Origin: Candidatus Poribacteria bacterium
GTDB taxonomy: Bacteria; Poribacteria; WGA-4E; WGA-3G
Assembly: GCA_965232545.1 (NCBI GenBank)
Contig: OZ246979.1
Coordinates: 5,811,287 to 5,875,286 of the forward strand
Direction: 5' to 3'
DNA length: 64,000 nucleotides
The translations under genes were made by a program, and so were the position numbers. Shown in pieces: positions 15,639 through 41,415 of the stretch. Position 1 is the stretch's first letter; each line of letters begins with the position of its first letter. Below the pieces are notes generated by a model. The model was not told where the DNA came from and made no database searches. It worked only from the letters and a program-made list of their open reading frames with translations.

Positions 15639-15763
15639 GGACAAACAGAGACGCGATAAGAATAGTGAACCATTGACGATTGATGCTTTTTTCGTGATGC
15701 TCAATAAAAAATTCAAGAAGGTATAACCCTGTACAGATAAACCCCTCAACGTTCAAAGCAACT

Positions 15764-18599: not shown

Positions 18600-18622
18600 T
18601 CATGTAGACAAAGGTTAAAGCA

Positions 18623-19228: not shown

Positions 19229-19274
19229 ATTTAAAACTATTTGGCGAAGGTCGCCATATTTTTTTGGCTATAAG

Positions 19275-19305
19275 TTAACACTGTTAAATTATTTACCTAT
19301 GTTAA
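19275..19305 (+). promoter_or_regulatory. TetR-type operator pair upstream of FG-GAP gene 1
   Basis: Perfect palindrome TTAACACTGTTAA plus TTACCTATGTTAA. Confidence 0.65.
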
Positions 19306-19335
19306 TATCTTATAAAACTCGAATGGAGAAAAAAA

Positions 19336-21054: not shown

Positions 21055-21083
21055 ATCCATCGGTTATATTTTTTGTCTATCAC

Positions 21084-21114
21084 TTAACACTGTTCATTTA
21101 TTTACCTATGTTAA
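21084..21114 (+). promoter_or_regulatory. duplicated TetR-type operator pair upstream of FG-GAP gene 2
   Basis: TTAACACTGTTCA...TTACCTATGTTAA, near-identical to 19275-19305. Confidence 0.65.
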
Positions 21115-21142
21115 TTTATTGAAAATCCGAAAGGGAACAAAA

Positions 21143-23699: not shown

Positions 23700-25439
23700 T
23701 TAATTGCCAGCATGTATGCCTGCGAATTGTTTCTGGAATAGGTCGTGATATACACCACCCCGTTGAAGCAGTTCGGCATGTGTACCGGTTTCAACGAGCC
23801 TACCGTCTTTGAGGACAAGGATTTTGTCAGCATCTAAAATGGTTGAGAGTCGGTGTGCGATGACGAAACTGGTGCGTCCTCTCATGAGGCGTGTGAGTGC
23901 TTCTTGGACGAGTGCCTCGGATTCTGCATCCAAAGACGATGTTGCCTCATCAAGAATGAGGATTTTGGGGTCTCTAATAAGCACGCGCGCGATAGCGATC
24001 CGTTGCTGTTCACCCCCAGACAGTCGAACGCCGCGCTCACCAACTTTCGTCTCATACTGCTCTGGGAAATTCATGATGAAATCGTGGGCATTTGCTAACT
24101 TCGCGGCGGCGACGATCTCTTCGTGTGTGACTGCTTCTGGGTCTTCCGCACCCAGACGGATATTGTAGGAGATGCTTTCAGCGAACAGATACGGATCTTG
24201 AAAAACGATGCCGATATGGGCCCGTAGAGACTGGATTTGGATCTCTTGGATGGGAATGGCATCTATCAAGATACTGCCTTGCTGTGGATCATAGAAACGT
24301 GGAATTAAACTGATGAGGGTGCTTTTACCTGCACCACTGGGTCCAACTAATGCGACCGTCTCATCGGGTTCCGCTTGAAAGTTCATTTCTTGTAAAATCG
24401 GTGCCGCTTCGTTATATTCAAAGGAGACGTTGGAGAATTGGACACGTCCCTCAATTTGTTCTATCGGTGTTCCTTCTCGCGATTCTTCCTCATGTTCATC
24501 GAAGAACGCGAAAATACGCCGAGCGGCAACCATGATTGACGGGATTCCGAGATGGAGTTTTACAAGTTGTGACACAGGCGCGTGTACATTGCCAAAATAG
24601 TGTATGATGACAAGAAGCTCACCGATGGTAATCGCATCGCGCAGGACGTAACCCCCGCCTATGAAAAATATGAGACCCCGGGCTAACCAGAATAGAATGA
24701 TGGTGAACCCACCGCCTGCCTGCCGAATGAGTCCGTGTCTAATGCCGATTGCGATGAGCCGTTCGATAAACTGGCGTAGGTTCTTTAAATCATAAAATTC
24801 CTTTCCTAATCCTTTCAGCTCACGAGAACCAGCAATGCTTTCCTGTAGTTTGCTTGACAGGCGTGCGTTCTGTTCTTGGATTTCCTCACCCATTCGACCG
24901 AGCGGTTTATCCAAAACCGCGGGGATGATTATGTTTACGGCGACGAGTAATAAGGAGAGAATACACAACTGATAGTTGATGTATGTAATAATACCGAGTG
25001 TTACAACGAGCATAATACCGTTTATAATATAGTCGCCAGCAAACAAGTTGAATCCTTGCACCGCTGCTGGCGTATCTGATGTGAACGTCGCCATGACTTT
25101 GCCGGTTTGGTGCGTGTCGTAAAATTTGAATCCTAATTTGCGGAGATGGTGGTAGGCTTCAAATTGAATGTCTTTCGATCCATTCTCCGAAACCTTCGCC
25201 GGAAAGTAAGTCGTTCCAAATCGGAAAAAGTACATACCGACCGCAGTTAGAGCATAGAATCCGCAGGTAGGTAGCAACAGTTCAGCGTTTTTTGGGATAA
25301 AGACATCGTCGATCAGAATCTTCCGAAGCCAGGGCCATATAAGGCTACAGCCTGAGTTGCCCAATGCGCAGAAGATAAAGAGCAGTTGGAAGTGCCAATA
25401 CGGTTTTAGATACGACAACAGTCGCAGAATGTCTTTCAT
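23700..25439 (-). CDS. ABC exporter (MsbA-like TMD+NBD), paralog 2
   Basis: GPSGAGKS, LSGGEQQR, ILDEATS; starts MKDILRLL 1 nt after the paralog 1 stop. Confidence 0.9.
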   Translation of the reverse strand: MKDILRLLSYLKPYWHFQLLFIFCALGNSGCSLIWPWLRKILIDDVFIPKNAELLLPTCGFYALTAVGMYFFRFGTTYFPAKVSENGSKDIQFEAYHHLRKLGFKFYDTHQTGKVMATFTSDTPAAVQGFNLFAGDYIINGIMLVVTLGIITYINYQLCILSLLLVAVNIIIPAVLDKPLGRMGEEIQEQNARLSSKLQESIAGSRELKGLGKEFYDLKNLRQFIERLIAIGIRHGLIRQAGGGFTIILFWLARGLIFFIGGGYVLRDAITIGELLVIIHYFGNVHAPVSQLVKLHLGIPSIMVAARRIFAFFDEHEEESREGTPIEQIEGRVQFSNVSFEYNEAAPILQEMNFQAEPDETVALVGPSGAGKSTLISLIPRFYDPQQGSILIDAIPIQEIQIQSLRAHIGIVFQDPYLFAESISYNIRLGAEDPEAVTHEEIVAAAKLANAHDFIMNFPEQYETKVGERGVRLSGGEQQRIAIARVLIRDPKILILDEATSSLDAESEALVQEALTRLMRGRTSFVIAHRLSTILDADKILVLKDGRLVETGTHAELLQRGGVYHDLFQKQFAGIHAGN

Positions 25440-25440
25440 G

Positions 25441-27174
25441 TTACGCCCCCTTTTGCATTCCTGCGAACTGTTTCTGGAATAGGTCGTGATATACACCACT
25501 ACGTTGAATCAACTCAGCGTGTGTGCCGGATTCAACGAGTTCTCCATCGCTGAGTACAAGAATCTTGTCAGCGTTCAAGATGGTTGAGAGTCGGTGTGCG
25601 ATGACGAAACTGGTGCGACCTCTCATGAGGTGTGTGAGTGCTTCTTGAACGAGTGCTTCGGATTCTGCGTCCAAAGATGATGTTGCCTCATCGAGAATGA
25701 GGATTTTGGGGTCTCTGATAAGCACGCGCGCAATGGCAATGCGTTGCTGTTCGCCGCCGGATAACTGAACCCCACGTTCGCCGATTTCACTCTCATATTG
25801 TTCAGGAAATTTCATGATAAAGTCGTGTGCGTTTGCTAACTTTGCGGCGGCGATAACCTCTTCGTGTGTGACTGCTTCTGGATCCGCTGCACCTAAGCGG
25901 ATGTTGTAGGCGATGCTCTCGGCGAATAGATATGGGTCTTGAAAAACAGTGCCGATATGCGATCGCAACGATTGGATTTGGATTGTATTGATCGGTGTGG
26001 CGTCGATAAGGATATTACCGTGTTGGGGTTCATAAAAGCGCGGAATTAGGCTCACCAAAGTGCTCTTACCGGCACCGCTGGGTCCGACTATCGCAATTGT
26101 TTCGCCGGGTTCTGCTTGGAAACGAATCCGTTTCAAAACGGGGTGTGCTTCGCTGTATTCAAAGGAGACATCAGAAAATTGAATGCTTCCCTCAATTTGC
26201 GTGAGAGGTGTACCATCTTGAGGTTCTTGCTCGTGTTCATCAAAGAACGCGAAAATCCGACGAACCGCCGCCATGACGGATGGAATGCTGAGATGAAGGC
26301 TTACGAGAAAGTGCACAGGACGTTGCAGCGCATTGAACCACATGACTACCGCAAAGAGTTCTCCCACGGTCATCGCGTCTCGTAGGACATACCCACCTCC
26401 CACCAGAAGCACCAGGGCATCGCTGAGCCACCAGATGACTAAGATATCCCCCACCTTTTGGATCTTTACCTGTTTGATACGGATTGTCACAAGTTGCTTC
26501 AGAAAGTGATGGATGTTTTTTAAATCGTAGAGTTCTTTCCCCAATCCCTTGAGTTCACGGGAACCGGCAATGCTTTCCTGAAGGTTGCTTGACAGTATAG
26601 CGTTTTGTTCCTGTACTTCCTCTCCTATGCGATTAAGGGATTTGTTTAAAAGGATTGGCATCAAGACGGTCACGCCGACGAGGAGCAGTGAGAGAAGGCA
26701 TAACTGCCAACTAACGTGCATGACGACAGGGATAGTAACAATGAGCAGAATGGTGTTCGTCGGGTAGTCGCTGGCAAATATCTGGAACCCCTCTATCGCC
26801 TTTGGCGTGTCTGACGTGAACAGTGCCATGACCTTGCCGGTCTGCTGCGTGTCGTAAAATTTGAAGCCTAATCTACGGAGGTGATGGTAGGCGGCGAGTT
26901 GGATGTCTTTCGCGGCGTTTTGTGCGACCTTTATAGGAAAGTAAGCGAATCCAAGTGAAAAGAGGTACATGCCGAAGGCGATCAGCATCCAGAATCCGCA
27001 CGTAGGCAATAGTTTATCGGCATCTTTTGCGAGAAAGACATCGTCAATCAGAATCTTTTCAATCCAAGGAAGAACGATGAACCCACTCCAGTAACCGAGC
27101 GTGCAAAGAATGTAAAGCCCTTGGAAATGCCAATACGGTTTTAGGTATGACAGGAGCCGCAGAACATCTTTCAT
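25441..27174 (-). CDS. ABC exporter (MsbA-like TMD+NBD), paralog 1
   Basis: Same motifs; starts MKDVLRLL. Confidence 0.9.
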   Translation of the reverse strand: MKDVLRLLSYLKPYWHFQGLYILCTLGYWSGFIVLPWIEKILIDDVFLAKDADKLLPTCGFWMLIAFGMYLFSLGFAYFPIKVAQNAAKDIQLAAYHHLRRLGFKFYDTQQTGKVMALFTSDTPKAIEGFQIFASDYPTNTILLIVTIPVVMHVSWQLCLLSLLLVGVTVLMPILLNKSLNRIGEEVQEQNAILSSNLQESIAGSRELKGLGKELYDLKNIHHFLKQLVTIRIKQVKIQKVGDILVIWWLSDALVLLVGGGYVLRDAMTVGELFAVVMWFNALQRPVHFLVSLHLSIPSVMAAVRRIFAFFDEHEQEPQDGTPLTQIEGSIQFSDVSFEYSEAHPVLKRIRFQAEPGETIAIVGPSGAGKSTLVSLIPRFYEPQHGNILIDATPINTIQIQSLRSHIGTVFQDPYLFAESIAYNIRLGAADPEAVTHEEVIAAAKLANAHDFIMKFPEQYESEIGERGVQLSGGEQQRIAIARVLIRDPKILILDEATSSLDAESEALVQEALTHLMRGRTSFVIAHRLSTILNADKILVLSDGELVESGTHAELIQRSGVYHDLFQKQFAGMQKGA

Positions 27175-27205
27175 ATCACGTTTTCTTTTTTGGGGACGCG
27201 AATAA

Positions 27206-27248
27206 GGCTTCGGTCTGAAAGGATAAAAATCTCCCACAGACCGAAGCC
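27206..27248 (-). promoter_or_regulatory. 5' leader hairpin of the ABC exporter pair
   Basis: Perfect 12-bp inverted repeat ggcttcggtctg/cagaccgaagcc with 19-nt loop. Confidence 0.45.
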
Positions 27249-27449: not shown

Positions 27450-28475
27450 TTATTCTTGCCAAATGCCGATTTCTTGATAGAAACGGACTGCACCCGGATG
27501 AAAAGGGGTGCCTATATCCTTGACGACATTTTTCGGATTGATGGCTTTGCCAGCACCATGCCGTTTCACGACTTCCGCGCGATGCGTATACAAAGTCTTT
27601 ACGAATTCGTAAACCGTATTTTCATCTGCATTCTCAGCGGTAATCAGGTGCATCGCGCCTACGTTCATGCTCGCAAACGGTTCTGTCTGTCCTTTGTAGG
27701 TATTGGCAGGGATCGTTACGGCATTAAAGAAAGGATAATCTGCAAAGAGAGACTGTTTCGCAGCATCGTCGAATGGGATGAAAAAGATGTTTTGAGACGT
27801 ACTGGCTTGGGTAGCGGCTGGTGTTGGGATCGCACCACCGACGAATGCAGCGGCGGCAGAACCGTCTGCTAACAAATCTACTGCCCCGATATAAGTGCTA
27901 TTGATCGGCGTGAAATCCTCGTAGGTGATACCGTGTGCCGCCAGTATCGGTTTAAGGAAATACTCAAAGCCCGCACCTGCGGGTCCAACAACAATCCGTT
28001 TACCGGCGAAGTCGCGGATGCTACGGATATCGGAGGACTGCGGTGTAAGGAATAGCCCAACGTTCGGAGCAAGCGTCATGATGTTACGGATAGCGTGTTC
28101 GGTCGCCCACGCCCCTTCACCGCGCACAGCAAAATAGGAGATTGCGGCGTTAGCGAGTGCAAATTCCAGTTCACCATTCACGACGCGCCGGATGTTTTCC
28201 TGTGTGCCTTTCGTGGCTTCAGCCGTCACTTCCCAGTTTGCGTCTTGGATGTTCCCGTCGACGACCTCGGCGATTGCGGAACCCACGACGAAGAACGCAC
28301 CACCAGCAGGGGCAGTGCCAATGCTGATATAGCGACGTTTTCTGGAATTATCGTTCACTAACTCGGCGGGTGTATCACCCTTCTCGTTTTGGGCGGTGTC
28401 GCGTTTTGAAGCATTATCGCACCCAATTGCGAGTATAACGCAGAGAATCGATAGATAGGACAAGATTGATTTCAT
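27450..28475 (-). CDS. TAXI family TRAP transporter solute-binding lipoprotein
   Basis: Lipobox LAIGC; ISIGTAPAGGAFF, EATKGTQENI, PFHPGAVRFY. Confidence 0.85.
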   Translation of the reverse strand: MKSILSYLSILCVILAIGCDNASKRDTAQNEKGDTPAELVNDNSRKRRYISIGTAPAGGAFFVVGSAIAEVVDGNIQDANWEVTAEATKGTQENIRRVVNGELEFALANAAISYFAVRGEGAWATEHAIRNIMTLAPNVGLFLTPQSSDIRSIRDFAGKRIVVGPAGAGFEYFLKPILAAHGITYEDFTPINSTYIGAVDLLADGSAAAAFVGGAIPTPAATQASTSQNIFFIPFDDAAKQSLFADYPFFNAVTIPANTYKGQTEPFASMNVGAMHLITAENADENTVYEFVKTLYTHRAEVVKRHGAGKAINPKNVVKDIGTPFHPGAVRFYQEIGIWQE

Positions 28476-28531
28476 GAGAGTCTCCTATAGGTTATGGTTA
28501 TTTCGGGCTTACAAAGCTCTCCCATTCCGTA

Positions 28532-29794
28532 TCAATTGAGCGGCACTTCAGGTGGGAATGGACACATCTCTGCCATCGCTGGGAAGATGTGCGTTACATC
28601 TTTTCTGAACACATCTCCACTCAAGATGTCAACGATGCCTCCTTGGTGCTCTGGGTATTCTGATAGGAACCGTGCAAAACTAAATTCCTTAGTGTAGAAA
28701 GCGTAGACGAGTTTCCGAAATGCCTCCATCCCCTTTACAAACGCAGGTCCGAAACTGCCGAGTTGCGTTTCGGAGAAGTCATTCTTATCGAACGCTTCGA
28801 TGATGACATCCGCTGCCATCTCTCCAGATTTGAGTGCCAGAAACAGTCCAGTTGAATAGACGGGATCCAAGAACCCGAATGCGTCACCTACGAGTACCCA
28901 GTTATTGCCTGCGATACGGCTGGCGCGATAGGAGAAGTCTTTTGTGGTTTGGATGGGGAGGAGTTGCTTCGCGCCTTCGAGCCGTTGCTGCAATGGCGCA
29001 CACTTCGCGAGTTCTTCGTCGAAGATTTTTTGGGCATTGAGTTTGCCATCGGCATCTCTTCGATTCTGGAGGAGATAGTCTAATTCACCGACAACCCCGA
29101 TACTCGTGCGGTTATAGGGGAGTGGGATCGACCAGAACCAAGAATCTTTCTCTTCGGTGTGTAGGATGAGTGTCGCGCCTTCGTCGATACCTTCGTCTCT
29201 GTGTCCACCTTCATAGTGCGTGAAGAGCGATGCCATTTTGAGGTTCGGTTCTATCGTATTTAGGTTCAGTTGCCTGCCGATGAGTGACCGCTGCCCAGTA
29301 GAATCCACAATGAGGGTTGCATGGAGAGTTTCACGGGTGCCGTCCGTGTGCTGTATAACAACGCCGGTTGCTGTATCCCCTTCAAAGAGGACCTCTCGGA
29401 CACCTGTTCCTTTGCGGATTTCTACCCCTTTTTCTTCTGCATTGTCCAAAAGCATCTCATCGAACTCACTCCGCAGGACCTGCCATGTGACGGCACTATC
29501 ATGCGGATTGGTTTGAAAGAAGTAGAACGGCGTGGAGGCTTTGCCGGAGCGTGAGTAGAACTGCACACTGTATTTCTGCGGAAAATGGCTTCCCCGCAGT
29601 TTTTCGAGCATACCGAGTCGTTTGAAAGTCCAGTACGTAGCGGGAATCAGCGATTCTCCGATTTTGAATGTCGGTTCGGCTTCCCGTTCAAGCAGCAGAA
29701 CGCTGTGTCCTTGTTCCGCAACGAGTGTTGCCACGGTGCTTCCGGCGGGTCCACCCCCGATAACGATAATGTCGTAGTTGTGGTATGTGTTCAT
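28532..29794 (-). CDS. FAD-dependent halogenase-like oxidoreductase
   Basis: GGGPAG, KIGES, FPQKYS, WFWSIP (WxWxIP), GDAFGFLDPVYSTG. Confidence 0.75.
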   Translation of the reverse strand: MNTYHNYDIIVIGGGPAGSTVATLVAEQGHSVLLLEREAEPTFKIGESLIPATYWTFKRLGMLEKLRGSHFPQKYSVQFYSRSGKASTPFYFFQTNPHDSAVTWQVLRSEFDEMLLDNAEEKGVEIRKGTGVREVLFEGDTATGVVIQHTDGTRETLHATLIVDSTGQRSLIGRQLNLNTIEPNLKMASLFTHYEGGHRDEGIDEGATLILHTEEKDSWFWSIPLPYNRTSIGVVGELDYLLQNRRDADGKLNAQKIFDEELAKCAPLQQRLEGAKQLLPIQTTKDFSYRASRIAGNNWVLVGDAFGFLDPVYSTGLFLALKSGEMAADVIIEAFDKNDFSETQLGSFGPAFVKGMEAFRKLVYAFYTKEFSFARFLSEYPEHQGGIVDILSGDVFRKDVTHIFPAMAEMCPFPPEVPLN

Positions 29795-29802
29795 TCGTTG
29801 AT

Positions 29803-30039
29803 TTATCTATGTGCGTCCATATACGTTCGGAGCACTGTATTTATCTGCGCGTGATAATCTTTTCCTTGTTTCTTGAACCATTCCAAGATGGGATGTTCGA
29901 TCTGAAGGTAATTTTCAGGAACAATTCGCTGAGCATTTTCCCAAAAATTATCATCAAGTTCGGGAATCTCTGATGTATCAATCGCGTCCTCAGGAAGGCT
30001 ATCAATCTCGGAAAGCCGTATTTTTGGGAGTTTCATCAT
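29803..30039 (-). CDS. BrnA-type antitoxin (no adjacent BrnT)
   Basis: IDTSEIPELDDNFW...ILEWFKKQGKDYHAQINTVLRTY. Confidence 0.75.
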   Translation of the reverse strand: MMKLPKIRLSEIDSLPEDAIDTSEIPELDDNFWENAQRIVPENYLQIEHPILEWFKKQGKDYHAQINTVLRTYMDAHR

Positions 30040-30166
30040 AGGGTGTTGACATCTTCACAGAGGCGACGTGTCATTAATTGCGCGACTAATAACCGCTGTC
30101 CCTGTAGCGATTAGCGTGTGGGCACTGAATGCTTTGCGAAGTACATATCTTTCCAAGGATTCAAAG

Positions 30167-30364
30167 TCAATCGGCAGCTTCTTTGTTGTTCTGTTTCGGG
30201 GTTTCGGGCTTCTCTGGCGGTAAATCTGCAAATTTGTACCCCGCCTTCCGGAATTCTTGATCCAATGCTCGGTAGTAAGCTCCCAATTTTTCGGGGTCGT
30301 GGTTAAACCGTTCTGAAATTTCCCTGCGAATTCTGTGAATTTCGTCAAGTTCGTAGTCTGCCAT
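30167..30364 (-). CDS. small helical hypothetical protein (65 aa)
   Basis: SD AGGAGG; DEIHRIRREISERFNHD pattern; degenerate paralog at 31028-31138. Confidence 0.6.
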   Translation of the reverse strand: MADYELDEIHRIRREISERFNHDPEKLGAYYRALDQEFRKAGYKFADLPPEKPETPKQNNKEAAD

Positions 30365-30382
30365 TTTAGGTTTCGCCTCCTA

Positions 30383-30751
30383 TTAGGACAAAACATCAAT
30401 CCTGACATCGCCATCTATCACAACGTCTAAAATCACACGATTTCCCTCAAGCAATGCCATCCCAACCAGGGGACCACCGTCCGTTCGTAGAACAGGGACT
30501 TCACGTTCTTCACCATGCCATAATACTTTTGCACGGTATAGTTCAAGGGCTACTATATTTCCATCACCAAGAATTGCGTAGCGACGACCTGCCCGTCGGA
30601 GACCAATGCGGTTAATTAAATCACCCGGCAGGGTCAAATGACCATCAAACCCTGTGTCAATAACTACTTCAATCTCTTCTCGCCTATGTAAGCCAACAAT
30701 TTCCAATTCAATGATGGCTTCTTGATTATTTGTAATTCTTCCTATAATCAT
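30383..30751 (-). CDS. clan AA (retropepsin-like) aspartic protease
   Basis: VIDTGFDG catalytic DTG and LVGMALL flap-end motif. Confidence 0.8.
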   Translation of the reverse strand: MIIGRITNNQEAIIELEIVGLHRREEIEVVIDTGFDGHLTLPGDLINRIGLRRAGRRYAILGDGNIVALELYRAKVLWHGEEREVPVLRTDGGPLVGMALLEGNRVILDVVIDGDVRIDVLS

Positions 30752-31020
30752 TGTGATGGGTCCGAAACCTTAAAGCCGATCCGGTAGGCAGCTGGAAACC
30801 CGATTCGCAAACCGTAAATGGTCGCATCGGGACGCTTGGCGAGAAGACTATCCGTGGCTACCAAATCTTCATCAGCGATCGCATAGTCCCCTGTTTCTAT
30901 GTCAATCACCAAGAATTTCCCTTTATGCATAGATTCAACTTTGTCCCGTATATTCTGCTGATAGAGTGCTTCACCGCGTACAGCAATAGTCTCAGAGGTT
31001 TTATCAGAGTATGGCATCAT
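30748..31020 (-). CDS. small hypothetical protein (DUF5678-like), coupled to the protease gene
   Basis: GKFLVIDIETGDY...RIG; ATGA overlap with the protease gene; SD AGGAG. Confidence 0.6.
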   Translation of the reverse strand: MMPYSDKTSETIAVRGEALYQQNIRDKVESMHKGKFLVIDIETGDYAIADEDLVATDSLLAKRPDATIYGLRIGFPAAYRIGFKVSDPSQ

Positions 31021-31027
31021 AATTCTC

Positions 31028-31138
31028 CTAACATTTAGCAGGTAGGTAGTGAGCGATCAGTTCGCCGACATCATCATCAAATCGAGCGGAAATTTTTCAC
31101 CAAATTCTGCGAATTTCATCAATTTCATAGTCTGCCAT
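31028..31138 (-). pseudogene. degenerate paralog of the 30167-30364 gene
   Basis: MADYEIDEIRRIW*KISARFDDDVGELIAHYLPAKC*, with an in-frame TGA. Confidence 0.65.
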
Positions 31139-31327
31139 TTTAGTCGTCAACTCCAAAAAAGTTTAAATGTATAGTAGAAACTCGGAATTGATGTTTCAAT
31201 GTAAACGCGATGTGGTGTTTCGTTATTCAACAATTATAAACCCCAAAGATTTAGATGTCAAGGGAAAGCAAATCATTGAACTCCCAACGCACAATGATTT
31301 GCGCGACTACTAACTGAGGTGTGTTGC

Positions 31328-32578
31328 TCATGAGGCTCGTTCATCAATGAATCGGTTTGACTTAAGCTCAGACCTCGGTAACGTTTCAAGTGGGACTGCT
31401 TTGACTATGGCACGTAAACCTAACTCGTCTCGAATCGCAGCGGCGACGGCGGTAGCAGTTTCAGCAGGATTTGGGTGCGTGGATTCAATCTGGATTTCCA
31501 ATTCGTCGAGCGTACCTGTTCCATAGACACGTGCCGAGAACTCGCGCACATCTGGAAACTTGAGGACAATGTTTTCGAGCGTAGCAGGATACACGTTCAG
31601 ACCGCGGATGATAACGGCTTTGTCTAATCGTCCAATAACGCCGCCATCAAGGACACGGCTTCCCCATCCGCATTCACACGCCGCTGATTTCAGCTTGACG
31701 TAATCTCCCGTCCGGTAACGGATAACGGGCATGCCGACGCGTCCTAAATTCGTAATGACTAACTCACCCGCGTCTGCCGGATTTCCAGTTTCTGGATCAA
31801 GTACTTCACAGATGAACTCCTCTTCGTTGAGATGAACACCCGCTTGTGGTTCGCACATAACACCCCATGCGCCGACTTCCGTTGCACCCGCATGGTCGTA
31901 GGCACGCGCCCCCCAACGGCTTTCAATGCGGTGTTTCGTAGCGGGTAGACTCGCTCCCGGTTCACCTGCGTGGATCGTCACCCGAATTGAAGTTTCTTCA
32001 GGTAGATTGATACCATCCTGTTCTGCGACTTCAGCAAGCCGCAATGCGTATGTCGGTGTAGCGATGAGCACCGTCACGTCGTTGCTAAGAATAGCGCGTA
32101 TCCGTTGATCGGAGGTCATGCCACCGTTTGGAATGATAAGCGCACCTAACTGCTGCGCACCGTGATACGCGCTCCAGAAACCGATAAAGGGACCGAACGA
32201 AAAGGCGATCATGAGCCGGTCTGCGGAGGTTACACCAGCGGCGCGATAAATTTCCCTCCAGCATTTTCCCCACCAGTCCCACGATTCTGCTGTATCTAAC
32301 CATCGCAGTGGTGAACCCGTTGTGCCTGACGTGCGGTGGAGACAGGTATATTGCTCCAATGGAAAGGTGAGATTCGTCCCGTAAGGCGGATGCGACACCT
32401 GATCGGTGCTGAGTTCTTCTTTTGTGGTAAATGGGAGTTGCCGGTAGTCCGCCAACGTTTGTACGTCGTTTGGATGCGTGACCCCGGCTTCAGTGAGTTT
32501 GTGTCGATAGAAGGCGTTGGTATCCAACACCGGAGCCAACATCTCACGGAGGCGATAGAATTGTGTTTGTGTATCCAT
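31328..32578 (-). CDS. phenylacetate-CoA ligase family (PaaK-like) adenylating enzyme
   Basis: HRTSGTTGSP, HAGEPG, YDHAGATE, RYRTGD. Confidence 0.85.
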   Translation of the reverse strand: MDTQTQFYRLREMLAPVLDTNAFYRHKLTEAGVTHPNDVQTLADYRQLPFTTKEELSTDQVSHPPYGTNLTFPLEQYTCLHRTSGTTGSPLRWLDTAESWDWWGKCWREIYRAAGVTSADRLMIAFSFGPFIGFWSAYHGAQQLGALIIPNGGMTSDQRIRAILSNDVTVLIATPTYALRLAEVAEQDGINLPEETSIRVTIHAGEPGASLPATKHRIESRWGARAYDHAGATEVGAWGVMCEPQAGVHLNEEEFICEVLDPETGNPADAGELVITNLGRVGMPVIRYRTGDYVKLKSAACECGWGSRVLDGGVIGRLDKAVIIRGLNVYPATLENIVLKFPDVREFSARVYGTGTLDELEIQIESTHPNPAETATAVAAAIRDELGLRAIVKAVPLETLPRSELKSNRFIDERAS

Positions 32579-32581
32579 GTA

Positions 32582-32782
32582 TTAGGTATATCGCGTGTTC
32601 TGGTATTCAGACTTGTAGGTTGGGTTGAATACCTCTGAGACATCAAATACCGCTGAACCAAACATGCATCAATGTCCAACCTCTCATACCCGTCATAGAC
32701 GAAGTGAAACCCAACAACTACTGACTGCTGACCGCTGATTGCTGATTGCTGATTTAGGTATATCGCGTGTTCTGGTATTCAG
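32582..32782. repeat. 29-bp direct repeat flanking a 143-bp REP/heptamer insert
   Basis: ttaggtatatcgcgtgttctggtattcag at 32582-32610 and 32754-32782. Confidence 0.85.
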
Positions 32783-34094
32783 GAGCATAGAATGCCGGAA
32801 GCAAGCTATCAACCTGGAGCAATCCACGTTGCGTCAGTTGAATTTCGTCTGATGCGGCGTTGACACGCAACATACCCTCGTTTTGCAGTTTCTCATAGGG
32901 TTCAGCAAAGGTGTCAAGGATGTCTGCGTCGAACTTCGCTTTGAAATAGGAGGGGTTGATCTTGCCGAGTTTAAGTTGTAGTATCATCTCCCGCGTCAAC
33001 CGTTCCGCTTCTGTTGGCTTCAGGGCTCGATAGACTGGAATCCTATCTTCCCCAAGGTGGCTGAGGTAGTCTCCCCATGAAGGCGCGTTTTGGAAATGGA
33101 TCCCGCTGAGGTGTGAGAAGGAGGCAACACCTGTGCCTATCATATCGCTTCCCTGCCACACGGCATCGCGGTAGACGAACTGACACGGTTTATCCTTCTT
33201 GAGCACTGTATACGCGCTGGATTGTGCGTAACCGGCTTGCTCAAACTGTTCAAAGGCGTATTGGTGCCATTCGCGTTTCAGCTTCCAGTCTGCCACTGGC
33301 AGTGTATCGCCGCCGAGGATGTCTTTAGAGTAGACGGTATTAAATGGCAATTCCAACTGATAGACAGTGACGCTATCTGGATCAAGTTCAATGGTCTTTT
33401 GGACGGTTTCTTGCCAGCTTTCCCATGTCTCGCCTATCATACCAGAGATGAGGTCAATGTTAACCTGATCGAACGCCAACGTCTTTATCCACGGGACAAT
33501 GCGATACACCTCTTTGGAAAGGTGTGCTCTACCGTTTTCAGCGAGGATCTCGTCGTTCAAGTTCTCAACGCCGAGGCTCAGTCGGGTTACACCGATTCCT
33601 TTGATCGCCTCTACTTTCTTTTCGGTCAAGGTGCCGGGTTCGCATTCAAAAGCAACCTCTTCGGCGGTATCCCACGGCATCACCCGTTTCACCCTGTCAA
33701 CGAGAGCCGTCAGGTGTTTAACGCTGATATAGGAAGGTGTCCCGCCACCGAAATAGACGAATCTCAGAGGTCTGCCAGCAATTGCGGGTTGCGCGCTGTA
33801 AAGTTCGACCTCTTTCGCGAGTGCGTTCAGATACGTGTCGATTTCCGAACTGTTTTTATCGGTATAGACGCGAAAATAGCAGAATTTGCACCGTTTGCGA
33901 CAGAAAGGGATATGGAGATATAACCCGAGTGTCGCATCCGAGCGTGGTTGTTCCCTCAGCGCGCGTTGCACTTCGGGTACATCTGACTCGCCCCATACGG
34001 AATACGGTGGGTAGTTGGAGACGAAAACGCTTCCTACGGTTGTGTCTTTTGAATCTATGCCTGCTGTCGCAGGTTCCGGTTTTGTTTCGGGCAT
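32754..34094 (-). CDS. HemN/HemW-like radical SAM protein (class C methyltransferase-like)
   Basis: LYLHIPFCRKRCKFC (CxxxCxxC), YFGGGTPS, RLSLGVEN, NIDLISG; N-terminal extension GSVFVSNYPPYSVW. Confidence 0.85.
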   Translation of the reverse strand: MPETKPEPATAGIDSKDTTVGSVFVSNYPPYSVWGESDVPEVQRALREQPRSDATLGLYLHIPFCRKRCKFCYFRVYTDKNSSEIDTYLNALAKEVELYSAQPAIAGRPLRFVYFGGGTPSYISVKHLTALVDRVKRVMPWDTAEEVAFECEPGTLTEKKVEAIKGIGVTRLSLGVENLNDEILAENGRAHLSKEVYRIVPWIKTLAFDQVNIDLISGMIGETWESWQETVQKTIELDPDSVTVYQLELPFNTVYSKDILGGDTLPVADWKLKREWHQYAFEQFEQAGYAQSSAYTVLKKDKPCQFVYRDAVWQGSDMIGTGVASFSHLSGIHFQNAPSWGDYLSHLGEDRIPVYRALKPTEAERLTREMILQLKLGKINPSYFKAKFDADILDTFAEPYEKLQNEGMLRVNAASDEIQLTQRGLLQVDSLLPAFYAPEYQNTRYT

Positions 34095-34316
34095 TATTGA
34101 TGCTCCTTTATCTTAAATGGCATCGACATTTTCACGATCTGGTTGTGTCGGATGTGGCGCGAACGTTCCTATAACGTGAGTGCAATTTCTATTTTCACTG
34201 CGAGGCGAAATCTGCGATAGGTGTGATGTATTGTGTCGGTTTCCTCTGATTCTTAGTCAAACGCACGTTCAAATAAGTTCACATAATTATAACATTAAAC
34301 CATAGATCGTGCCAAT

Positions 34317-35531
34317 CTATGTTGACCCGAAACAGTACAGGATCCCGTCCTCAGTCCCGATATAGATTCTACCGTCGGAGACGCTCGGTGAGGCGACGAT
34401 AGATGAACCGGTTGCGAATTCCCACACCGATTCCCCAGTCGTAATATCTAAAGCGATAAACAACCCACGAGTTGTCCCTAAAAAGGCGCGTTTGCCAACA
34501 ATGACGGCGGAAGACTCGATACGGGATTTAGCCGTATACGTCCATAGCGATTCACCTGTCGCCTGTGAGAGCGCATGCACCATCTTATCGCGTCCTCCGA
34601 TGATAACGCTGTCTTCCGTGAGAGCGGCTGAAGCGAAGAATGGGAATCTGCGTTTCGGATGCCGATACCGCCACACAATTTCCCCAGTGTCTAACGCAAC
34701 CCCCAATATTTCTGTGCCGTACGTGCCGCAATAAACATGATTCCGTGAAATCGCCGGACTCGCACCGACATACGCACCGAGATTTACCTGTTGCGTCTGC
34801 GTACCATCATCAATGTTGATGACGCGGAGATAACTATCGCATCCGGTGACAATCGCGAAATTGTTTGTCTTACCAGAATCGTTTGCGACCTGCGTCCAGA
34901 CCCCAGGGGTACCATGGACGTAGCCTTCAGTCTCTAATTTCCAGACCAGTTCTCCATTCTCTCGGTTCAGACAGTAGAGGAATCCGTCATACGAACCGAA
35001 CAACACGCGATCACCAACGACATTTGCCGATGAGATGATTTCACCTTCCGTCGTGAACTGCCATTTCGCTGCTTGGGTGTTGATGTCCACCGCATGGAAA
35101 ATCCCATCCCCATCGCCGAAGTAGGCAACGCCGTTGTGAATAGAGGGCGAGGCTTTGATCGCTCCCTCTACCTGATACGTCCACTTTTTTTCGCCGGTTT
35201 GTGCGTCAAGTGCGTAGAGGGTTCCGTTTAATGCGCCAACGTAGACTCTGCCGTCAACGACTGTAGCAGTGGATTCAATCATATCGCCTACCTGAAAAGT
35301 CCAAAGCAATTGCGGATTTTCGGGGAGTTGGGAATCGGCGACACCCGTGAGTTGTGGGTTACCACGAAAACTTGCCCAGTTACCGAAAACTGTGGCTGAG
35401 GTGAGGAACAGTAGCGCAAGGATGGAAAAGACTTTTATTTCTCTGGGATGGTGGACGCTCCGCTGGCGAGGTTGGAAACCTCGCCTCTGAAGCAGGTCGT
35501 TAAATGCGGGTGTATCAGTATGCTTGTTCAT
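34317..35531 (-). CDS. PQQ-like (BamB-type) beta-propeller exported protein
   Basis: NWASFRGNPQLTG; repeated LYALDAQTGEKKW-type tryptophan-docking blades. Confidence 0.8.
   Translation of the reverse strand: MNKHTDTPAFNDLLQRRGFQPRQRSVHHPREIKVFSILALLFLTSATVFGNWASFRGNPQLTGVADSQLPENPQLLWTFQVGDMIESTATVVDGRVYVGALNGTLYALDAQTGEKKWTYQVEGAIKASPSIHNGVAYFGDGDGIFHAVDINTQAAKWQFTTEGEIISSANVVGDRVLFGSYDGFLYCLNRENGELVWKLETEGYVHGTPGVWTQVANDSGKTNNFAIVTGCDSYLRVINIDDGTQTQQVNLGAYVGASPAISRNHVYCGTYGTEILGVALDTGEIVWRYRHPKRRFPFFASAALTEDSVIIGGRDKMVHALSQATGESLWTYTAKSRIESSAVIVGKRAFLGTTRGLFIALDITTGESVWEFATGSSIVASPSVSDGRIYIGTEDGILYCFGST
35462..35485. repeat. family B REP (GCTGGCGAGG...CCTCGCC)
   Basis: Hairpin; related copies at 10787, 36954 and 52706. 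Confidence 0.6.
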
Positions 35532-35636
35532 AGGGGTAATTTAAAAAAACAGATATGTATTTGATTTTCAAGAAATGTTTTGAGATCCAATCTGTGAAGC
35601 CTCAACGGAGGTCAGGTAGACGAACGTGTTGCCTTC

Positions 35637-35710
35637 AGCCCCAGCGGGGCGACATTTGTGTAGCATGTGGGATTCCCCGAATATCCAAGCCCCAGCGGGG
35701 CGACATTTGT
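35637..35710 (+). repeat. two identical 23-bp palindromic direct repeats
   Basis: agccccagcggggcgacatttgt at 35637-35659 and 35688-35710. Confidence 0.75.
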
Positions 35711-35762
35711 AAAGACGTTGCTACCAAATACCGCGAAGAATCCCTAAGTTGACTATGGTATT

Positions 35763-36884
35763 TCAATAAACTTTTTCATAAAGGTTCATAAAATCTCTGG
35801 TATTCAAAGGACGCGGGTTGAACTGTGCTGTCCACTGTGTCGCCGCTTCCTTTGCCAACGTCGGTATGTCTGTCGTTCCTATCGTGTATTGGACAGGATA
35901 ATCCCGAAGTCTGTTCGGCAAATTGCCGATCTGTTTGAGCGCAATAATTCTGTCTGCTAAGTCTCCATCCGGGTACAGTTCACGATAGGTTTCTCCTGCA
36001 ACAGGGCTATTGAATCGGATGACGTGCGGTAACATCAACGCGACGGCAACACCGTGGATAACCTCGTATCTCGCCGTCAAAGGATTGGCACAGGCGTGTG
36101 CGGCACCCAACATCGAGTTTTCAATAGCAAGTCCGGCAAGGTAGGCACCAAACAGCATTTTGCTTCTGGCTGTGGAACCGTTGGATTCAAGACATGCCTC
36201 AAAGTGGGCGTTCAGCAACTCCCATGCGTACCGTGCGAACATCTGGGACATCGGGTTGTGTCTCGTTGAGACGTAACTTTCAACAGCGTGTGCGATCGCG
36301 TCTATACCGGTGATTGCGGCGATCGGTCTCGGCAAGGTTTTGGTGAGCGTCGCATCTAAAAGGACAGTCCCGAATCGTGCTTTTGTATCGCCACACGCCA
36401 TTTTAATGTGTGTATCTGCCTGCGCGATGAGTGCGTAGGACTGCGCTTCGCTGCCGGTACCGATAGTCGTCGGGATACCGATAGACGGGAGCATCGGTTG
36501 TGTTGCCTTGTTTGTGCCCCAGTAATCCTCCATCTTTCCACCGTTCGTGAGCAGGAAGTTTACGCCTTTCGCACAGTCCATTGAGCTACCGCCACCGAGT
36601 CCGATGATAAGGTCTATCGGTGCGTTGGTCTTCGCGACCGCAAGCGCAGCGTCAACATCTTCCGTCGTAGGGTTGGATGTGGTGTCGGCAAAAACGTAGG
36701 CGGCGATCCTTTCGCTTTGCAGTGCTGAGACGGCTCTTGCGAGGATGCCTGCCTTTTCGATACCGGTGTCTGTCACGAGAAGGACGCGGCTACCCCCGCG
36801 TTCGCGGGTCAGTTCACCGAGTCTCTCAATCGTGTTATCACCGAAGATAACCTGTTGGTTCAGTTCGCAATCAAAAGTTTCCAT
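35763..36884 (-). CDS. iron-containing alcohol dehydrogenase
   Basis: GLGGGSSMDCAK, IPTTIGTGSE, DAIAHAVE, AAHACAN...IHG metal ligands. Confidence 0.9.
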   Translation of the reverse strand: METFDCELNQQVIFGDNTIERLGELTRERGGSRVLLVTDTGIEKAGILARAVSALQSERIAAYVFADTTSNPTTEDVDAALAVAKTNAPIDLIIGLGGGSSMDCAKGVNFLLTNGGKMEDYWGTNKATQPMLPSIGIPTTIGTGSEAQSYALIAQADTHIKMACGDTKARFGTVLLDATLTKTLPRPIAAITGIDAIAHAVESYVSTRHNPMSQMFARYAWELLNAHFEACLESNGSTARSKMLFGAYLAGLAIENSMLGAAHACANPLTARYEVIHGVAVALMLPHVIRFNSPVAGETYRELYPDGDLADRIIALKQIGNLPNRLRDYPVQYTIGTTDIPTLAKEAATQWTAQFNPRPLNTRDFMNLYEKVY

Positions 36885-37169: not shown

Positions 37170-37862
37170 AGTTTTCCTACTATAGCAACACCTCGGTTGC
37201 AATAGGCTTCTGCCAATTCAGGCTTCAGTTGTATCGCCTTATTATAGTCTTTGATAGCGAGACTCGTTATGCCTTTCCTGACATAAGCATTGCCGCGATT
37301 GCTGTATGATCATCCGTTGGGTTTCCACTATTTGACTGTCCAAAGAGGGAGACCATAGATGCCAATTTTCTTCATCAATCGGAAAGAATACTTCTAAATC
37401 TTGCTGAAGTTCTTCAATAGTTGTTATCTCTTTAATTTTCTCACTATCGTTTTCTAACACAAGGACTTTGCCGTTTGTATTTTCATCAGTGCATGCAAAC
37501 CAGAGAGCGACCAACGGGCTGAAAGTAAAGTCAATTAAGCCTGTAGCAACTCGATTATGCTGTAAGTGTGCCATGCACTCTAAAGCCGGCAGATTTCTAT
37601 AGGCGGATGGCTATCTTAGTTTAATCTCATCAATGATTTCAAGGAGATAGTTCAGGTACAAATGGCGCAACGAATAAGAAGGAAGATCCGCTTCCGGTCC
37701 TAAATTTTCGGAACTACTTACTAAGCGGCGATAAGCACTACTGGTTACGCGCCATGCTTCACCTTCCTGACCGCGATAGAGATAACTTTTTTTGGGATGA
37801 GTTATGTTGTCTATTTGGTTGATGTAGTCTGCTAAATTAGAGATCTCAATGGGGGTGTTCAT
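37170..37862 (-). pseudogene. FRG-domain/TPR protein pseudogene
   Basis: YLYRGQ...SSAYRR; in-frame TAG at 37611-37613; HLQH...IDFTFSPLVALWFAC; out-of-frame TPR remnant RGNAY...AIKDYNKAIQLKPELAEAYCNRG; left boundary approximate. Confidence 0.75.
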
Positions 37863-38146: not shown

Positions 38147-38740
38147 TTAGGGTAGGTGACTGCCGCTGCCCGTTTGCGACCAGAAATCTTCAGCAGCCTG
38201 ATGATGGTTCTCATGCAGCCAGCGATGAATTCGCCTAAGAATACGCGGTAATCCCTTTTGCGGCAAATTTTCCGCTTCCCAACTTGCCATCTGTCTCCGC
38301 AGCGAATCATCAATCGGGGTTTCAGGGGTGAGATCTACTTGATGGCAGGCTTGTATCAATTTTCGGTCGTCTGTCGCTAAGGTGTTAGCACCGCTTGCAA
38401 GTGCTGCTTGGACCAGTACTGCATCGGTGATGTCAATCTCCAACGCGTCGGCGATCCGCATCGCCGCGAGTGTCATGGATAGGTCTATCTCAATGATTTC
38501 AATGGGGCCTGCGGAAAATTGCGAAAGTCGTTGCGAGGCGAGGGAGGCATCCACAGCATAGACTTTTGTGAGAATCGCTTTTGCTTCAAGCAGGGCAAGT
38601 GTTGTCGTGAGCCAACGGGTGCTTTCTCGAATAAACGATTCGCAAACGTCAGAAGCGGGGTGGTTGTCAAGTAGAGAGTAGACAATCAACATCGCATCCA
38701 GTCCGCGCGGTGCAAGTCGTTCAGAGGATAAGGTCATCAC
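38147..38740 (-). CDS. PIN domain (VapC-like) toxin with C-terminal extension
   Basis: Acidic quartet LDAM, LLEA, ITDA, ATDD; overlaps the antitoxin stop. Confidence 0.75.
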   Translation of the reverse strand: MMTLSSERLAPRGLDAMLIVYSLLDNHPASDVCESFIRESTRWLTTTLALLEAKAILTKVYAVDASLASQRLSQFSAGPIEIIEIDLSMTLAAMRIADALEIDITDAVLVQAALASGANTLATDDRKLIQACHQVDLTPETPIDDSLRRQMASWEAENLPQKGLPRILRRIHRWLHENHHQAAEDFWSQTGSGSHLP

Positions 38741-38957
38741 CGCTCACCTCAGACAAGTCTAATGCCGAAGTATTCCCTATTTTGAGTTTCTCGGCATAAA
38801 TCTCGTCCCATGTTTGTACCGGGTACGGACGGATGAGAATGCCATCGTGGGTTCTTTCAAGCACGATACCCGATTCCAAACCCAATTCCACCACCCAGTC
38901 CGGGGGCAATTCTATTTTATAATCCGCTTCCAACCGGAACGTTTTCATGGTAGTCAC
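38721..38957 (-). CDS. AbrB/MazE-like antitoxin
   Basis: KIELPPDWVVELGLESGIVLERTHDGILIRP swapped-hairpin pattern. Confidence 0.7.
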   Translation of the reverse strand: MTTMKTFRLEADYKIELPPDWVVELGLESGIVLERTHDGILIRPYPVQTWDEIYAEKLKIGNTSALDLSEVSGDDLIL

Positions 38958-39081
38958 CTCTTCTTACAGCAGATTTTGGAGTTGGACTGCACCCATGCGA
39001 AAGCGGGTTCAGTCCTTCAGGTGGAAAGATAGACATTACAGACTTTACTAATGCCTATCTTTCTATCCAACGACTGATAAA

Positions 39082-39110
39082 AGTATATCGCGGCTTGAGT
39101 CAATTGTCAA
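39082..39110 (-). promoter_or_regulatory. sigma70 promoter of the vapBC-like operon
   Basis: TTGACA-17-TATACT on the minus strand. Confidence 0.65.
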
Positions 39111-39381
39111 GTGTTTTTAACAGGGAATACTAATCGTAAAGGATCGGCATTAGTAATTGAATATCTGCCGGATTCAAAGAAATGCTTACTGGACATATCA
39201 AATTGTTTCCCTGTTTGTCCAAAAGACCGGTATAGATATGGAATAGCTGATGCGGAAATTTGAAATCCGTTGCTGCTATGCCTTCAGATAATTTATGCCT
39301 TCGGACGCATGATAATACATGTAGGGGAATAAACGGAGGTTGACTCAGATACTGGACTGGAGAGGTGTGTTCTAATTGGGT

Positions 39382-39536
39382 AGGACTTACGCACTTCCCT
39401 GGTAGGTGCGGTTTTGCGGCGTACTCGCCCCGGTGAATGCCACACGGCATTCATACCGTTGATTCATGCGATCTGCATTCCCAATCGCACCGAATGCGTC
39501 CAAATAGATGAAATTTACTGATTTTGCGTAAGTCCT
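39382..39536. mobile_element. MITE-like element (AGGACTTACGCA ends), longer variant
   Basis: Perfect 12-bp TIR aggacttacgca/tgcgtaagtcct; internal GTAGGTGCGGTT...AATCGCACC. Confidence 0.6.
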
Positions 39537-40320: not shown

Positions 40321-40338
40321 GGTCGGAATCCTACTAAA

Positions 40339-41385: not shown

Positions 41386-41415
41386 GATTTGTTTACCGCC
41401 TTTTGGCGTTAGGGG

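Follow-up and report, generated by a model that had tools for sequence, protein, structure and literature searches.

The genes treated here have their closest described counterparts in several separate systems. HemN-fold radical S-adenosylmethionine (SAM) proteins are known as HemN, HemW and class C methyltransferases or their relatives (NocN/NosN, C10P, ChuW), variant-B flavin-dependent halogenases as CndH, PltA, Mpy16, Bmp2 and CmlS, and PaaK-like ligases as BagE, FlxY, NatL2/AjiA1 and YtkN. The yatakemycin and CC-1065 clusters bring a HemN-like protein (C10P/YtkT) together with a PaaK-type (PCL-type) ligase, YtkN, in the tailoring of a small molecule; they differ from the locus described below by a partner methyltransferase, many scaffold genes and the lack of a halogenase and a propeller, and the likeness is one of gene types only. 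For EhpF and EhpG of the phenazine pathway to D-alanylgriseoluteic acid, Bera and colleagues are said to have proposed in 2010 that an aromatic carboxylate is turned into an aldehyde via an acyl-adenylate. According to a bioRxiv preprint (Loureiro et al., 10.64898/2026.08.03.742642), a candidate pseudoclass of biosynthetic gene clusters, 'Halo_AMP', consists of an FADH2-dependent halogenase plus an AMP-binding enzyme and occurs in sponge Acidobacteriota, Latescibacterota and Poribacteria; its product is not known, its ligases are PaaK-like with BagE and YtkN as best matches, and PQQ-like, radical SAM, TonB, glycosyltransferase, thioesterase and toxin-antitoxin genes are frequent in it. Here we describe a locus within 64,000 nucleotides of contig OZ246979.1 from a Candidatus Poribacteria bacterium (assembly GCA_965232545.1, positions 5,811,287 to 5,875,286; this whole stretch is called the window), in which genes for an iron-containing alcohol dehydrogenase (Fe-ADH), a beta-propeller, a HemN-fold radical SAM enzyme, a PaaK-like ligase, a flavin-dependent halogenase and a TAXI-family lipoprotein follow one another on one strand (Table 1). 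The ligase and halogenase genes, 1.5 kb apart, fall under the Halo_AMP rule as worded in the preprint abstract (both gene types in one neighbourhood), and the general architecture is therefore not unreported. We regard the feature as real and strongly conserved, an orphan halogenase cluster made of tailoring enzymes only and partly anticipated by the preprint, and offer its function as a proposal.

The coherence of the locus has emerged from a comparison with the 80 best species-level loci matching the radical SAM gene of the window, which come from Poribacteria, Latescibacterota, KSB1, Acidobacteriota (Thermoanaerobaculia, Holophagae) and unclassified metagenome-assembled genomes (MAGs). They have been mapped by tblastn with the window proteins and with family representatives, some contigs also carrying precomputed gene calls. 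The radical SAM proteins of these loci are 59–98% identical to that of the window, the 98% identity being reached in complete Candidatus Poribacteria genomes. Fe-ADH, propeller and radical SAM genes lie collinear within 4.5 kb in 67 of the 77 loci that are eligible by having enough upstream sequence, and they do so in at least four phyla. Where at least 9 kb of downstream sequence exists, a halogenase gene on the same strand follows in 24 of 29 close Poribacteria, 13 of 14 Latescibacterota and all nine Acidobacteriota loci, and a PaaK-like ligase has been found in 22 of the 23 full-flank loci of the closest Poribacteria (group A) as well as in 13 of 14 Latescibacterota loci. The propeller gene is the tightest partner of the radical SAM gene. 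All six window genes evolve under strong purifying selection, with ratios of nonsynonymous to synonymous substitution (dN/dS) of 0.04–0.2 against seven poribacterial orthologue sets; the radical SAM, halogenase and ligase genes are the most constrained (∼0.05, the ligase ∼0.06–0.07), and the Fe-ADH gene shows 0.07–0.12. That the six genes might be unrelated neighbours, together by recent common descent only, could be read from the large spacers and insertions in the window and from the flanking ABC exporter, M55 peptidase and oxidoreductase genes, which are syntenic in close relatives only; set against the same order and strand in at least four phyla at 44–65% protein identity, with overlapping stop and start codons, this explanation is extremely improbable. 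Synteny in dozens of species-level genomes lies beyond chance, and the genes form a real functional unit; the lack of co-conservation by which an earlier note on this DNA would have been refuted is not seen across Poribacteria, Latescibacterota and Acidobacteriota.

The borders of this unit have shifted nonetheless. The TAXI gene, taken by the earlier note as one of the members, comes after the halogenase gene in 19 of the 23 full-flank loci that represent the closest group of Poribacteria, and has been seen in Poribacteria only, an SSF symporter holding its position in other phyla; it is a Poribacteria-only addition. The two ABC exporters reported after the six genes are indeed present, but they stand beside TAXI in only 3 of 23 close relatives, are displaced by ∼4.7 kb in the loci L003 and L004, and are syntenic in the closest relatives only. 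They have been rejected as cluster members on this ground, together with the 2-oxoacid:ferredoxin oxidoreductase (two subunits) and the M55 peptidase (a D-aminopeptidase) encoded upstream of the cluster, which are syntenic in the closest Poribacteria only (7–9 loci).

With the exception of TAXI, each of the six window genes has its orthologue in a tightly packed, translationally coupled operon of Latescibacterota. From precomputed gene calls and tblastn maps, this operon has been recognised in relatives as a compact run of ∼16 genes, often with 4-bp overlaps of stop and start codons, as in the loci L090–L092 and on the P0115 contig; in L090–L092 (∼14850–19150) every junction in the series halogenase, DUF3311, SSF and GT4 is such an overlap of 4 bp. 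It begins with two secreted propellers (∼740 and ∼520 aa), an EhpF-like, C-terminally truncated adenylase (360 aa) and an EhpG-like aldehyde dehydrogenase (ALDH), continues with the Fe-ADH, the secreted propeller orthologous to that of the window and the HemN-fold radical SAM enzyme, and then encodes a further propeller (417 aa), a TonB-dependent receptor, the PaaK-like ligase (among these operons in Latescibacterota only) and the halogenase. The distal part comprises DUF3311 plus an SSF symporter, a GT4 glycosyltransferase, a small membrane protein and/or a 4HBT thioesterase, an ABC ATPase and a duplicated FtsX permease (∼1100 aa). The truncated adenylase has been identified as an EhpF homologue (PDB 3l2k/3hgu, 160 bits, E 1e-45), a match that supersedes the LuxE/LuxC identity considered for the pair, and the ALDH-family gene follows it directly, as in ehpF-ehpG of phenazine clusters; the operon differs from those clusters in lacking phenazine genes and in having the pair, which is not in the window, followed by the Fe-ADH instead of a short-chain dehydrogenase/reductase. 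Such a pair followed by an Fe-ADH reads as an acid-to-aldehyde-to-alcohol module. Because the additional genes of the operon are absent from the 64 kb, the window is understood as a reduced version. The six-gene set had been presented as the cluster itself; it is a remnant, to which the fuller operon adds the EhpF/EhpG-like pair, the TonB receptor, the SSF symporter, GT4, the thioesterase and the FtsX-type ABC system.

The operon has also been reshaped elsewhere. In the KSB1 loci L081–L083 (∼11450–21330), the radical SAM gene is followed by four tandem fusions (∼800 aa) of a propeller to a PF00756 esterase, which replace the TonB receptor, ligase and halogenase, and a beta-lactamase-family hydrolase occurs in KSB1 loci as well. 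In an unclassified MAG (GCA_023384335.1; L088/L089, 8825–11374), the propeller and radical SAM genes stand as a pair amid unrelated genes, and for this reason the pair is taken as the minimal conserved unit. As to novelty, the label 'orphan' chosen by the earlier note has to be qualified, as Halo_AMP clusters with PQQ-like, radical SAM, TonB and toxin-antitoxin genes have already been described from these sponge phyla in the preprint. The preprint focuses on an acidobacterial P450-containing clan unlike the cluster of the window, and within its text no account has been found of the core of Fe-ADH, propeller and HemN-fold radical SAM enzyme, of the EhpF/EhpG-like pair or of occurrence in non-sponge metagenomes. 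Putative halogenase genes of Poribacteria have been noted in 2013, according to papers citing that work. Our literature search has found no description of a fixed 16-gene operon in non-sponge metagenomes or of the minimal propeller-radical SAM pair, and no precedent for a HemN-like enzyme combined with a halogenase or PaaK.

Among the single proteins, the halogenase has only halogenases as its best PDB matches, namely 8zop (203 bits), CndH (3e1t), PltA, Mpy16, Bmp2, ChlB4, CmlS and RadH, and its similarity to the variant-B enzymes (E 1e-41 to 1e-59) extends to every hallmark, which turns the cautious 'halogenase-like' of the earlier note into a firmer assignment. Lys74 aligns with the catalytic-Lys equivalent K76 of CndH, and this residue, GGGPAG (G13–G18) at the GxGxxG position, the WxWxIP-type W219-F-W-x-I-P224 and GDAxxFxDPxYSxG are invariant in eight orthologues at 50–81% identity. 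The nearest solved relatives are thioester- or phenol-directed halogenases. In contrast to the variant-B enzymes known so far, the protein is encoded without a carrier protein or a partner nonribosomal peptide synthetase (NRPS) or polyketide synthase (PKS), beside a stand-alone PaaK-like ligase, and in Acidobacteriota it is coupled directly to the TonB receptor and SSF symporter.

The radical SAM enzyme falls below every curated cut-off. It scores 190 bits against 324.95 for HemN (TIGR00538), 164.3 against 205.4 for HemW (TIGR00539), 184 against 380 for STM4012 and 177 against 400 for HutW, lies under the HemZ cut-off as well, and shares 26% identity with HemN and 29% with HemW of E. coli. An alignment of nine family members with HemN and HemW from E. 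coli MG1655 has revealed what is common to the whole group, i.e., CxxxCxxC, GGGTP and the SAM-contacting residues Y59, H61, E150, R189 and D214. The fourth Cys of HemN (C71) is replaced by Phe in all nine members, as in HemW, and none of them has an aligned counterpart of the HemN RNFQG segment, which, following Layer and colleagues, reportedly carries the SAM2 residues F310/Q311. From HemW the family is set apart by a conserved N-terminal segment of ∼50 residues. This segment includes the GSVFVSNYPPYSVW motif (residues 21–34) and had been regarded by the earlier note as an extension foreign to both HemN and HemW; that view has to be revised, since the invariant VGSVFVSNYPPYS.W aligns with the GPRYTSYPTALEF segment of HemN and VSNYPPYS with RYTSYPTA (Y and P invariant) of the HemN N-terminal PRYTSYPTA segment, and it is HemW alone that lacks it. 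The HemN_C domain is recognised with 27 bits (cut-off 24), and an AlphaFold (AF2) model with a mean pLDDT confidence value of 87.6 matches HemN (1olt) over 432 columns with a TM-score of 0.78–0.80, no other structure coming near. The second-best PDB match by sequence is the class C methyltransferase NocN (9p2u; 101 bits, residues 54–253), which aligns with the core; enzymes of this class spend two SAM molecules on methylating or methylenating a carbon centre. A further difference to HemN, HemW and the class C enzymes is the constant pairing with a secreted propeller.

By these data, a housekeeping HemN or HemW has been ruled out through curated scores, identity and motif pattern despite the HemN-like fold, and a grouping with HemW, the outcome that would have spoken for a heme chaperone, is not seen, the HemN model scoring better than that of HemW and the fold being a full-length HemN fold. 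The protein is, as far as curated cut-offs can tell, a distinct HemN-fold family that is neither HemN nor HemW. One may still ask whether it acts on tetrapyrroles or serves as a chaperone (a heme function of the HemN, HemW or ChuW type), with neighbours that are heme-linked or passively syntenic. The complete HemN fold with N-terminal segment and HemN_C, the HemW-like CxF, a cross-phylum conservation as high as that of housekeeping genes, and a TonB receptor nearby in some phyla fit this idea. We consider it very unlikely in view of the sub-threshold scores, the low identity to both E. coli proteins, and the strict operon coupling to halogenase, ADH and adenylase genes instead of heme genes; moreover, the receptor is of the siderophore type, reaching 61 bits with the TonB-hemin model (cut-off 317).

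The PaaK-like ligase aligns over its full length with PaaK1 (2y27) and preserves the adenylation motifs TSGTTGSP and IRYRTGD as well as the C-terminal Lys (in RSELKSNR), yet its scores with the PaaK equivalog models amount to roughly a third of what the cut-offs demand (224–235 bits versus 646–700; TIGR02155 cut-off 646.3), with weaker matches to FlxY, BagE/FevW, AjiA1 and NatL2. The Pfam and NCBIfam profile scan, which has covered all window open reading frames (ORFs) of at least 150 aa, contains no paa catabolic genes of the paaABCDE type. True PaaK catabolism has been rejected on both counts, and so has an aryl-polyene or flexirubin cluster, for which genes for acyl carrier protein, ketosynthase, ketoreductase and dehydratase are missing and the FlxY score is too low (164 bits, cut-off 520). 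The same scan has found no gene for a PKS, an NRPS or a carrier protein, as previously stated for this window, the largest ORF having 815 aa. An alignment of the Fe-ADH with methanol dehydrogenase 8zrl brings the GGGSS motif and the metal-binding His motifs into register, and no NCBIfam equivalog cut-off is reached (best ErcA, 243.9 bits versus 550). The beta-propeller had been announced as a PQQ protein, a designation that does not survive closer comparison: its best PDB matches are the designed Cake/Bagel propellers (150–230 bits), 3hxj and BamB, and PQQ dehydrogenases match in short weak stretches only (TIGR03075, 100.5 bits versus 480). With 404 aa instead of the ∼570–700 aa expected, a PQQ quinoprotein dehydrogenase has been dismissed. 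In propeller orthologues, a Sec-type signal peptide precedes the conserved start (D/E)W..FRG..LTGV; the score with the BamB equivalog TIGR03300 is 152.5 bits versus 285.2 and the signal peptide has no lipobox Cys, so that the protein is predicted to be exported and to be BamB-like in fold class only. The TAXI protein matches PDB 1us4 (128 bits), and no TRAP permease has been found for it among the ORFs of the 64-kb window.

Taken together, we tentatively propose that the cluster tailors an aryl carboxylic acid by activation, halogenation, a radical SAM step and redox chemistry, a reading whose chances we put slightly short of even. Its substrate would be an aryl acid, probably of the phenol or pyrrole type, which may be of endogenous origin or may be caught by the TAXI lipoprotein. 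The PaaK-like ligase would adenylate the acid and probably convert it to a CoA thioester, and the halogenase would use FADH2, O2 and halide to halogenate the activated ring via Lys74, the thioester acting in place of a carrier protein, on which related halogenases depend. The HemN-fold enzyme may then perform a SAM-dependent radical step on carbon, most likely of the class C methylation type, the Fe-ADH would interconvert an aldehyde and an alcohol group, and the secreted propeller would meet the compound beyond the cytoplasm, either binding it or acting on it. The full operon might add a reduction of the carboxylate by the EhpF/EhpG-like pair as well as glycosylation and export of the product; GT4, thioesterase and FtsX-type ABC genes are common in biosynthetic clusters, as the preprint likewise states. 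Operon structure, conservation and intact catalytic motifs are the observations behind this scheme, from which we infer the order of steps, the class of the substrate and the product. The uncharacterised pathway for a modified small molecule envisaged by the earlier note is thus partly supported, by the conserved unit and by the halogenase hallmarks. By the same scheme, and with doubt just outweighing belief, the locus of the window would represent an ancient operon for a small aromatic carboxylic acid in a form that is specific to Poribacteria, reduced, and interrupted by insertions.

Several observations weigh against such tailoring. A scaffold-forming enzyme, a carrier protein and a flavin reductase are absent from both the window (for the flavin reductase, among the scanned ORFs) and the conserved operon, and none of the EhpF/EhpG-like, GT4, thioesterase or FtsX-ABC genes lies within the 64 kb. 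The ligase, counted as a member by the earlier note and retained as such in Poribacteria and Latescibacterota, has been found by tblastn in none of the seven full-flank Acidobacteriota loci; KSB1 loci have neither halogenase nor ligase within 10 kb, and the minimal propeller-radical SAM pair also stands without a halogenase. Co-transcription of the six genes in this genome is uncertain, given gaps of 175–307 bp and two insertions. Protein searches have returned no cultured or characterised family member, only generically named metagenome and MAG proteins. We know of no sequence rule that parts methylases from other HemN-like enzymes, whose chemistry cannot be predicted from sequence. Finally, uptake instead of synthesis is what the siderophore-type TonB receptor suggests, and the SSF symporter and TAXI do so too.

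The content of the larger operon thereby raises uptake or metallophore-like readings that the earlier note had not considered. One of them is a utilisation or salvage locus, in which an exogenous ester or aromatic is processed by the secreted propellers, some of them esterase-fused, imported via the TonB receptor and SSF symporter (TAXI in Poribacteria), and catabolised or modified in the cytoplasm, ADH and ALDH oxidising the compound, the ligase forming a CoA ester, and flavoprotein and radical SAM enzyme acting on the ring. The operon receptor passes the siderophore-receptor model TIGR01783 (256.4 bits, cut-off 223.5) and is encoded together with the DUF3311-SSF symporter, TAXI sits in Poribacteria at the position of this symporter, up to four secreted propellers occur per operon, the KSB1 fusions and hydrolase would suit the processing of an ester, and a scaffold-building enzyme is absent. 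On the other side, the flavoprotein retains the catalytic Lys and WxWxIP of halogenases and not of monooxygenases, the EhpF-like/ALDH pair suggests reduction instead of oxidation, translationally coupled GT4, thioesterase and FtsX-type ABC genes fit poorly with catabolism, and genes for ring cleavage or beta-oxidation downstream are lacking. We judge salvage unlikely, if worth keeping in mind. The SSF family includes a Na+/iodide symporter, and the operon symporter might, speculatively, supply halide instead of an organic substrate.

The same receptor bears on a second alternative, in which the cytoplasmic enzymes form, without an NRPS, a small halogenated aromatic with the role of a metallophore or cofactor. 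It would leave the cell through the FtsX-type ABC system, serve periplasmic propellers that use or bind it, and re-enter via the TonB receptor. Gene types for making, exporting and re-importing such a compound are all present in the operon, the receptor is of the siderophore type, and four propellers are co-encoded, a propeller and the radical SAM enzyme forming the minimal conserved unit. PF00756, fused to the propellers of KSB1, is the family that includes the enterobactin esterases, and PaaK-like ligases can form esters or amides without CoA (the NatL2/AjiA1 matches; BagE, YtkN). In the Poribacteria versions, however, that of the window among them, the cluster contains neither a TonB receptor nor an exporter. 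Use of cofactors is not known for BamB-type propellers, the data point to no metal-chelating group, and the reading is inferential throughout; it is rather improbable in our estimation. Tailoring and re-capture can also be joined, such that the conserved operon would be an NRPS/PKS-independent route, common to Acidobacteriota, Latescibacterota, KSB1 and Poribacteria, to a small halogenated, radical-SAM-modified aromatic. After synthesis and export the cell would take this compound back, either as a metallophore or to serve the four co-encoded propellers as ligand or cofactor, and in sponges such a route could be one bacterial source of small halogenated aromatics; we consider the proposal unlikely without calling it negligible.

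The features of the window are compiled in Table 1. The six genes named by the earlier note have proved to be intact ORFs at the positions given and in the same orientation, with identities and domains confirmed by Pfam and NCBIfam.

Table 1. Genes, insertions and further elements of the 64,000-nucleotide window.
Feature	Position	Strand	Description
Fe-ADH	35763-36884	minus	group III iron-containing alcohol dehydrogenase, 373 aa, cytoplasmic; PF00465 146.9 bits, PF25137 119.8 bits
Beta-propeller	34317-35531	minus	BamB-like (PQQ-like repeat), eight-bladed, predicted secreted, 404 aa; PF13570 259.9 bits, PF13360 168.3 bits
Radical SAM enzyme	32754-34094	minus	HemN-fold, 446 aa; Radical_SAM, HemN_C
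Ligase	31328-32578	minus	PaaK-like stand-alone adenylate-forming ligase, 416 aa; AMP-binding, AMP-binding_C_2; TIGR02155 223.9 bits
Halogenase	28532-29794	minus	flavin-dependent, phenol/pyrrole ('variant B') type, 420 aa; Trp_halogenase PF04820 110.4 bits (cut-off 21), FAD_binding_3
TAXI lipoprotein	27450-28475	minus	TAXI-family solute-binding lipoprotein, 341 aa; TIGR02122 230.4 bits (cut-off 84.35), lipobox LAIGC
ABC exporters	25441-27237; 23700-25499	minus	two paralogous MsbA-like exporters adjoining the TAXI gene; outside the conserved unit
143-bp insertion	32611-32753		between radical SAM and ligase genes; perfect 29-nt direct repeats at its flanks (32582-32782)
Three-ORF module	30055-31261	minus	orf90, clan-AA aspartic-protease-like ORF (122 aa), orf119; ORFs at 30055-31020
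Promoter of three-ORF module	31261-31233		perfect sigma-70 consensus, TTGACA-17-TATAAT
110-nt direct repeat	30271-30380; 31045-31154		70% identical, at the three-ORF module
REP-like repeats	35637-35710		two perfect 23-nt copies, 51 bp apart, in the Fe-ADH-propeller spacer
FRG-domain ORFs	37611-37862; 37242-37574		N- and C-terminal halves of an FRG-domain protein
Promoter by FRG-domain ORFs	37931-37903		perfect consensus
PIN-domain ORF pair	38147-39450		PIN-domain ORF (197 aa); small upstream ORF (39130-39450) with no family match
M55 peptidase and oxidoreductase	39547-43272		M55 D-aminopeptidase; two-subunit 2-oxoacid:ferredoxin oxidoreductase
PhyH-family dioxygenases	51416-56282; 16686-17507		three genes
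Mobile elements	56566-59385		DDE_Tnp_1 transposase (56566-57711); IS3-type HTH + rve integrase pair (58259-59385)
ECF sigma factors	9561-11652		two ORFs, 404 and 158 aa
AT skew	62001-64000		rises to 0.28

The run of six genes is not contiguous. Between the radical SAM and ligase genes, the 143-bp insertion copies the last 29 nt of the radical SAM gene to a place before the start codon of the ligase gene. Its removal restores TAA TAC ATG, an ancestral junction of radical SAM stop and ligase start that the insertion has split. A related sequence is present at the same junction in L001, the closest genome. The insertion resembles a small mobile or repeat element whose target duplication is long. 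The module of three unrelated small ORFs between the ligase and halogenase genes, headed by its own promoter, occurs in few close relatives only and is not part of the pathway; its clan-AA ORF scores 53.6 bits with TIGR03698, under the cut-off of 57.35, and orf90 has been rejected as a hidden carrier protein in the absence of a PP-binding or other Pfam match at E<=0.1. The ligase-halogenase spacer is an insertion hot spot in Poribacteria, with 19–5464 bp in the closest loci versus 0–16 bp in most Latescibacterota. No Rfam family matches the window or four operon loci, which have been searched for riboswitch and RNA clues, and promoter and terminator counts in the window do not exceed those of shuffled sequence.

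Further elements have been recorded around the cluster. The REP-like (repetitive extragenic palindrome) copies between the Fe-ADH and propeller genes contain the palindrome GCCCCAGCGGGGC and do not recur in the window. The FRG-domain ORFs match PADLOC family PDC-S15 (candidate defence) and are apparently a split gene or pseudogene. The PIN-domain pair lies between the Fe-ADH and M55 peptidase genes, is absent there in L001, and is probably a toxin-antitoxin-type insertion. Two of the PhyH dioxygenase genes are interleaved with GFO/IDH/MocA oxidoreductases, which may form a separate sugar or inositol-type modification block. The transposase and integrase genes (HTH, helix-turn-helix) are followed by an RRXRR-domain protein. 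The two extracytoplasmic function (ECF) sigma factor ORFs lie close together, the longer with a long C-terminal extension that includes an extra winged-helix region and the shorter looking truncated in region 4. In the last 2 kb of the window, where the AT skew rises, no tandem repeats have been found.

Among the symbionts of sponges, Poribacteria, Latescibacterota and Acidobacteriota are dominant, and none of their cultured members carries the cluster; many small halogenated metabolites of sponges still call for an explanation of their origin. Standard genome-mining rules miss it because PKS and NRPS genes are absent. In it, what looks like a genuine halogenase is combined with a new HemN-fold radical SAM family and with secreted propellers. 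The compact 16-gene versions of L090–L092 represent a defined, clonable unit. Once the pathway is solved, a radical SAM family that counts thousands of members in metagenomes would gain a function and, likewise, so would the class of 'PQQ-like' propellers.

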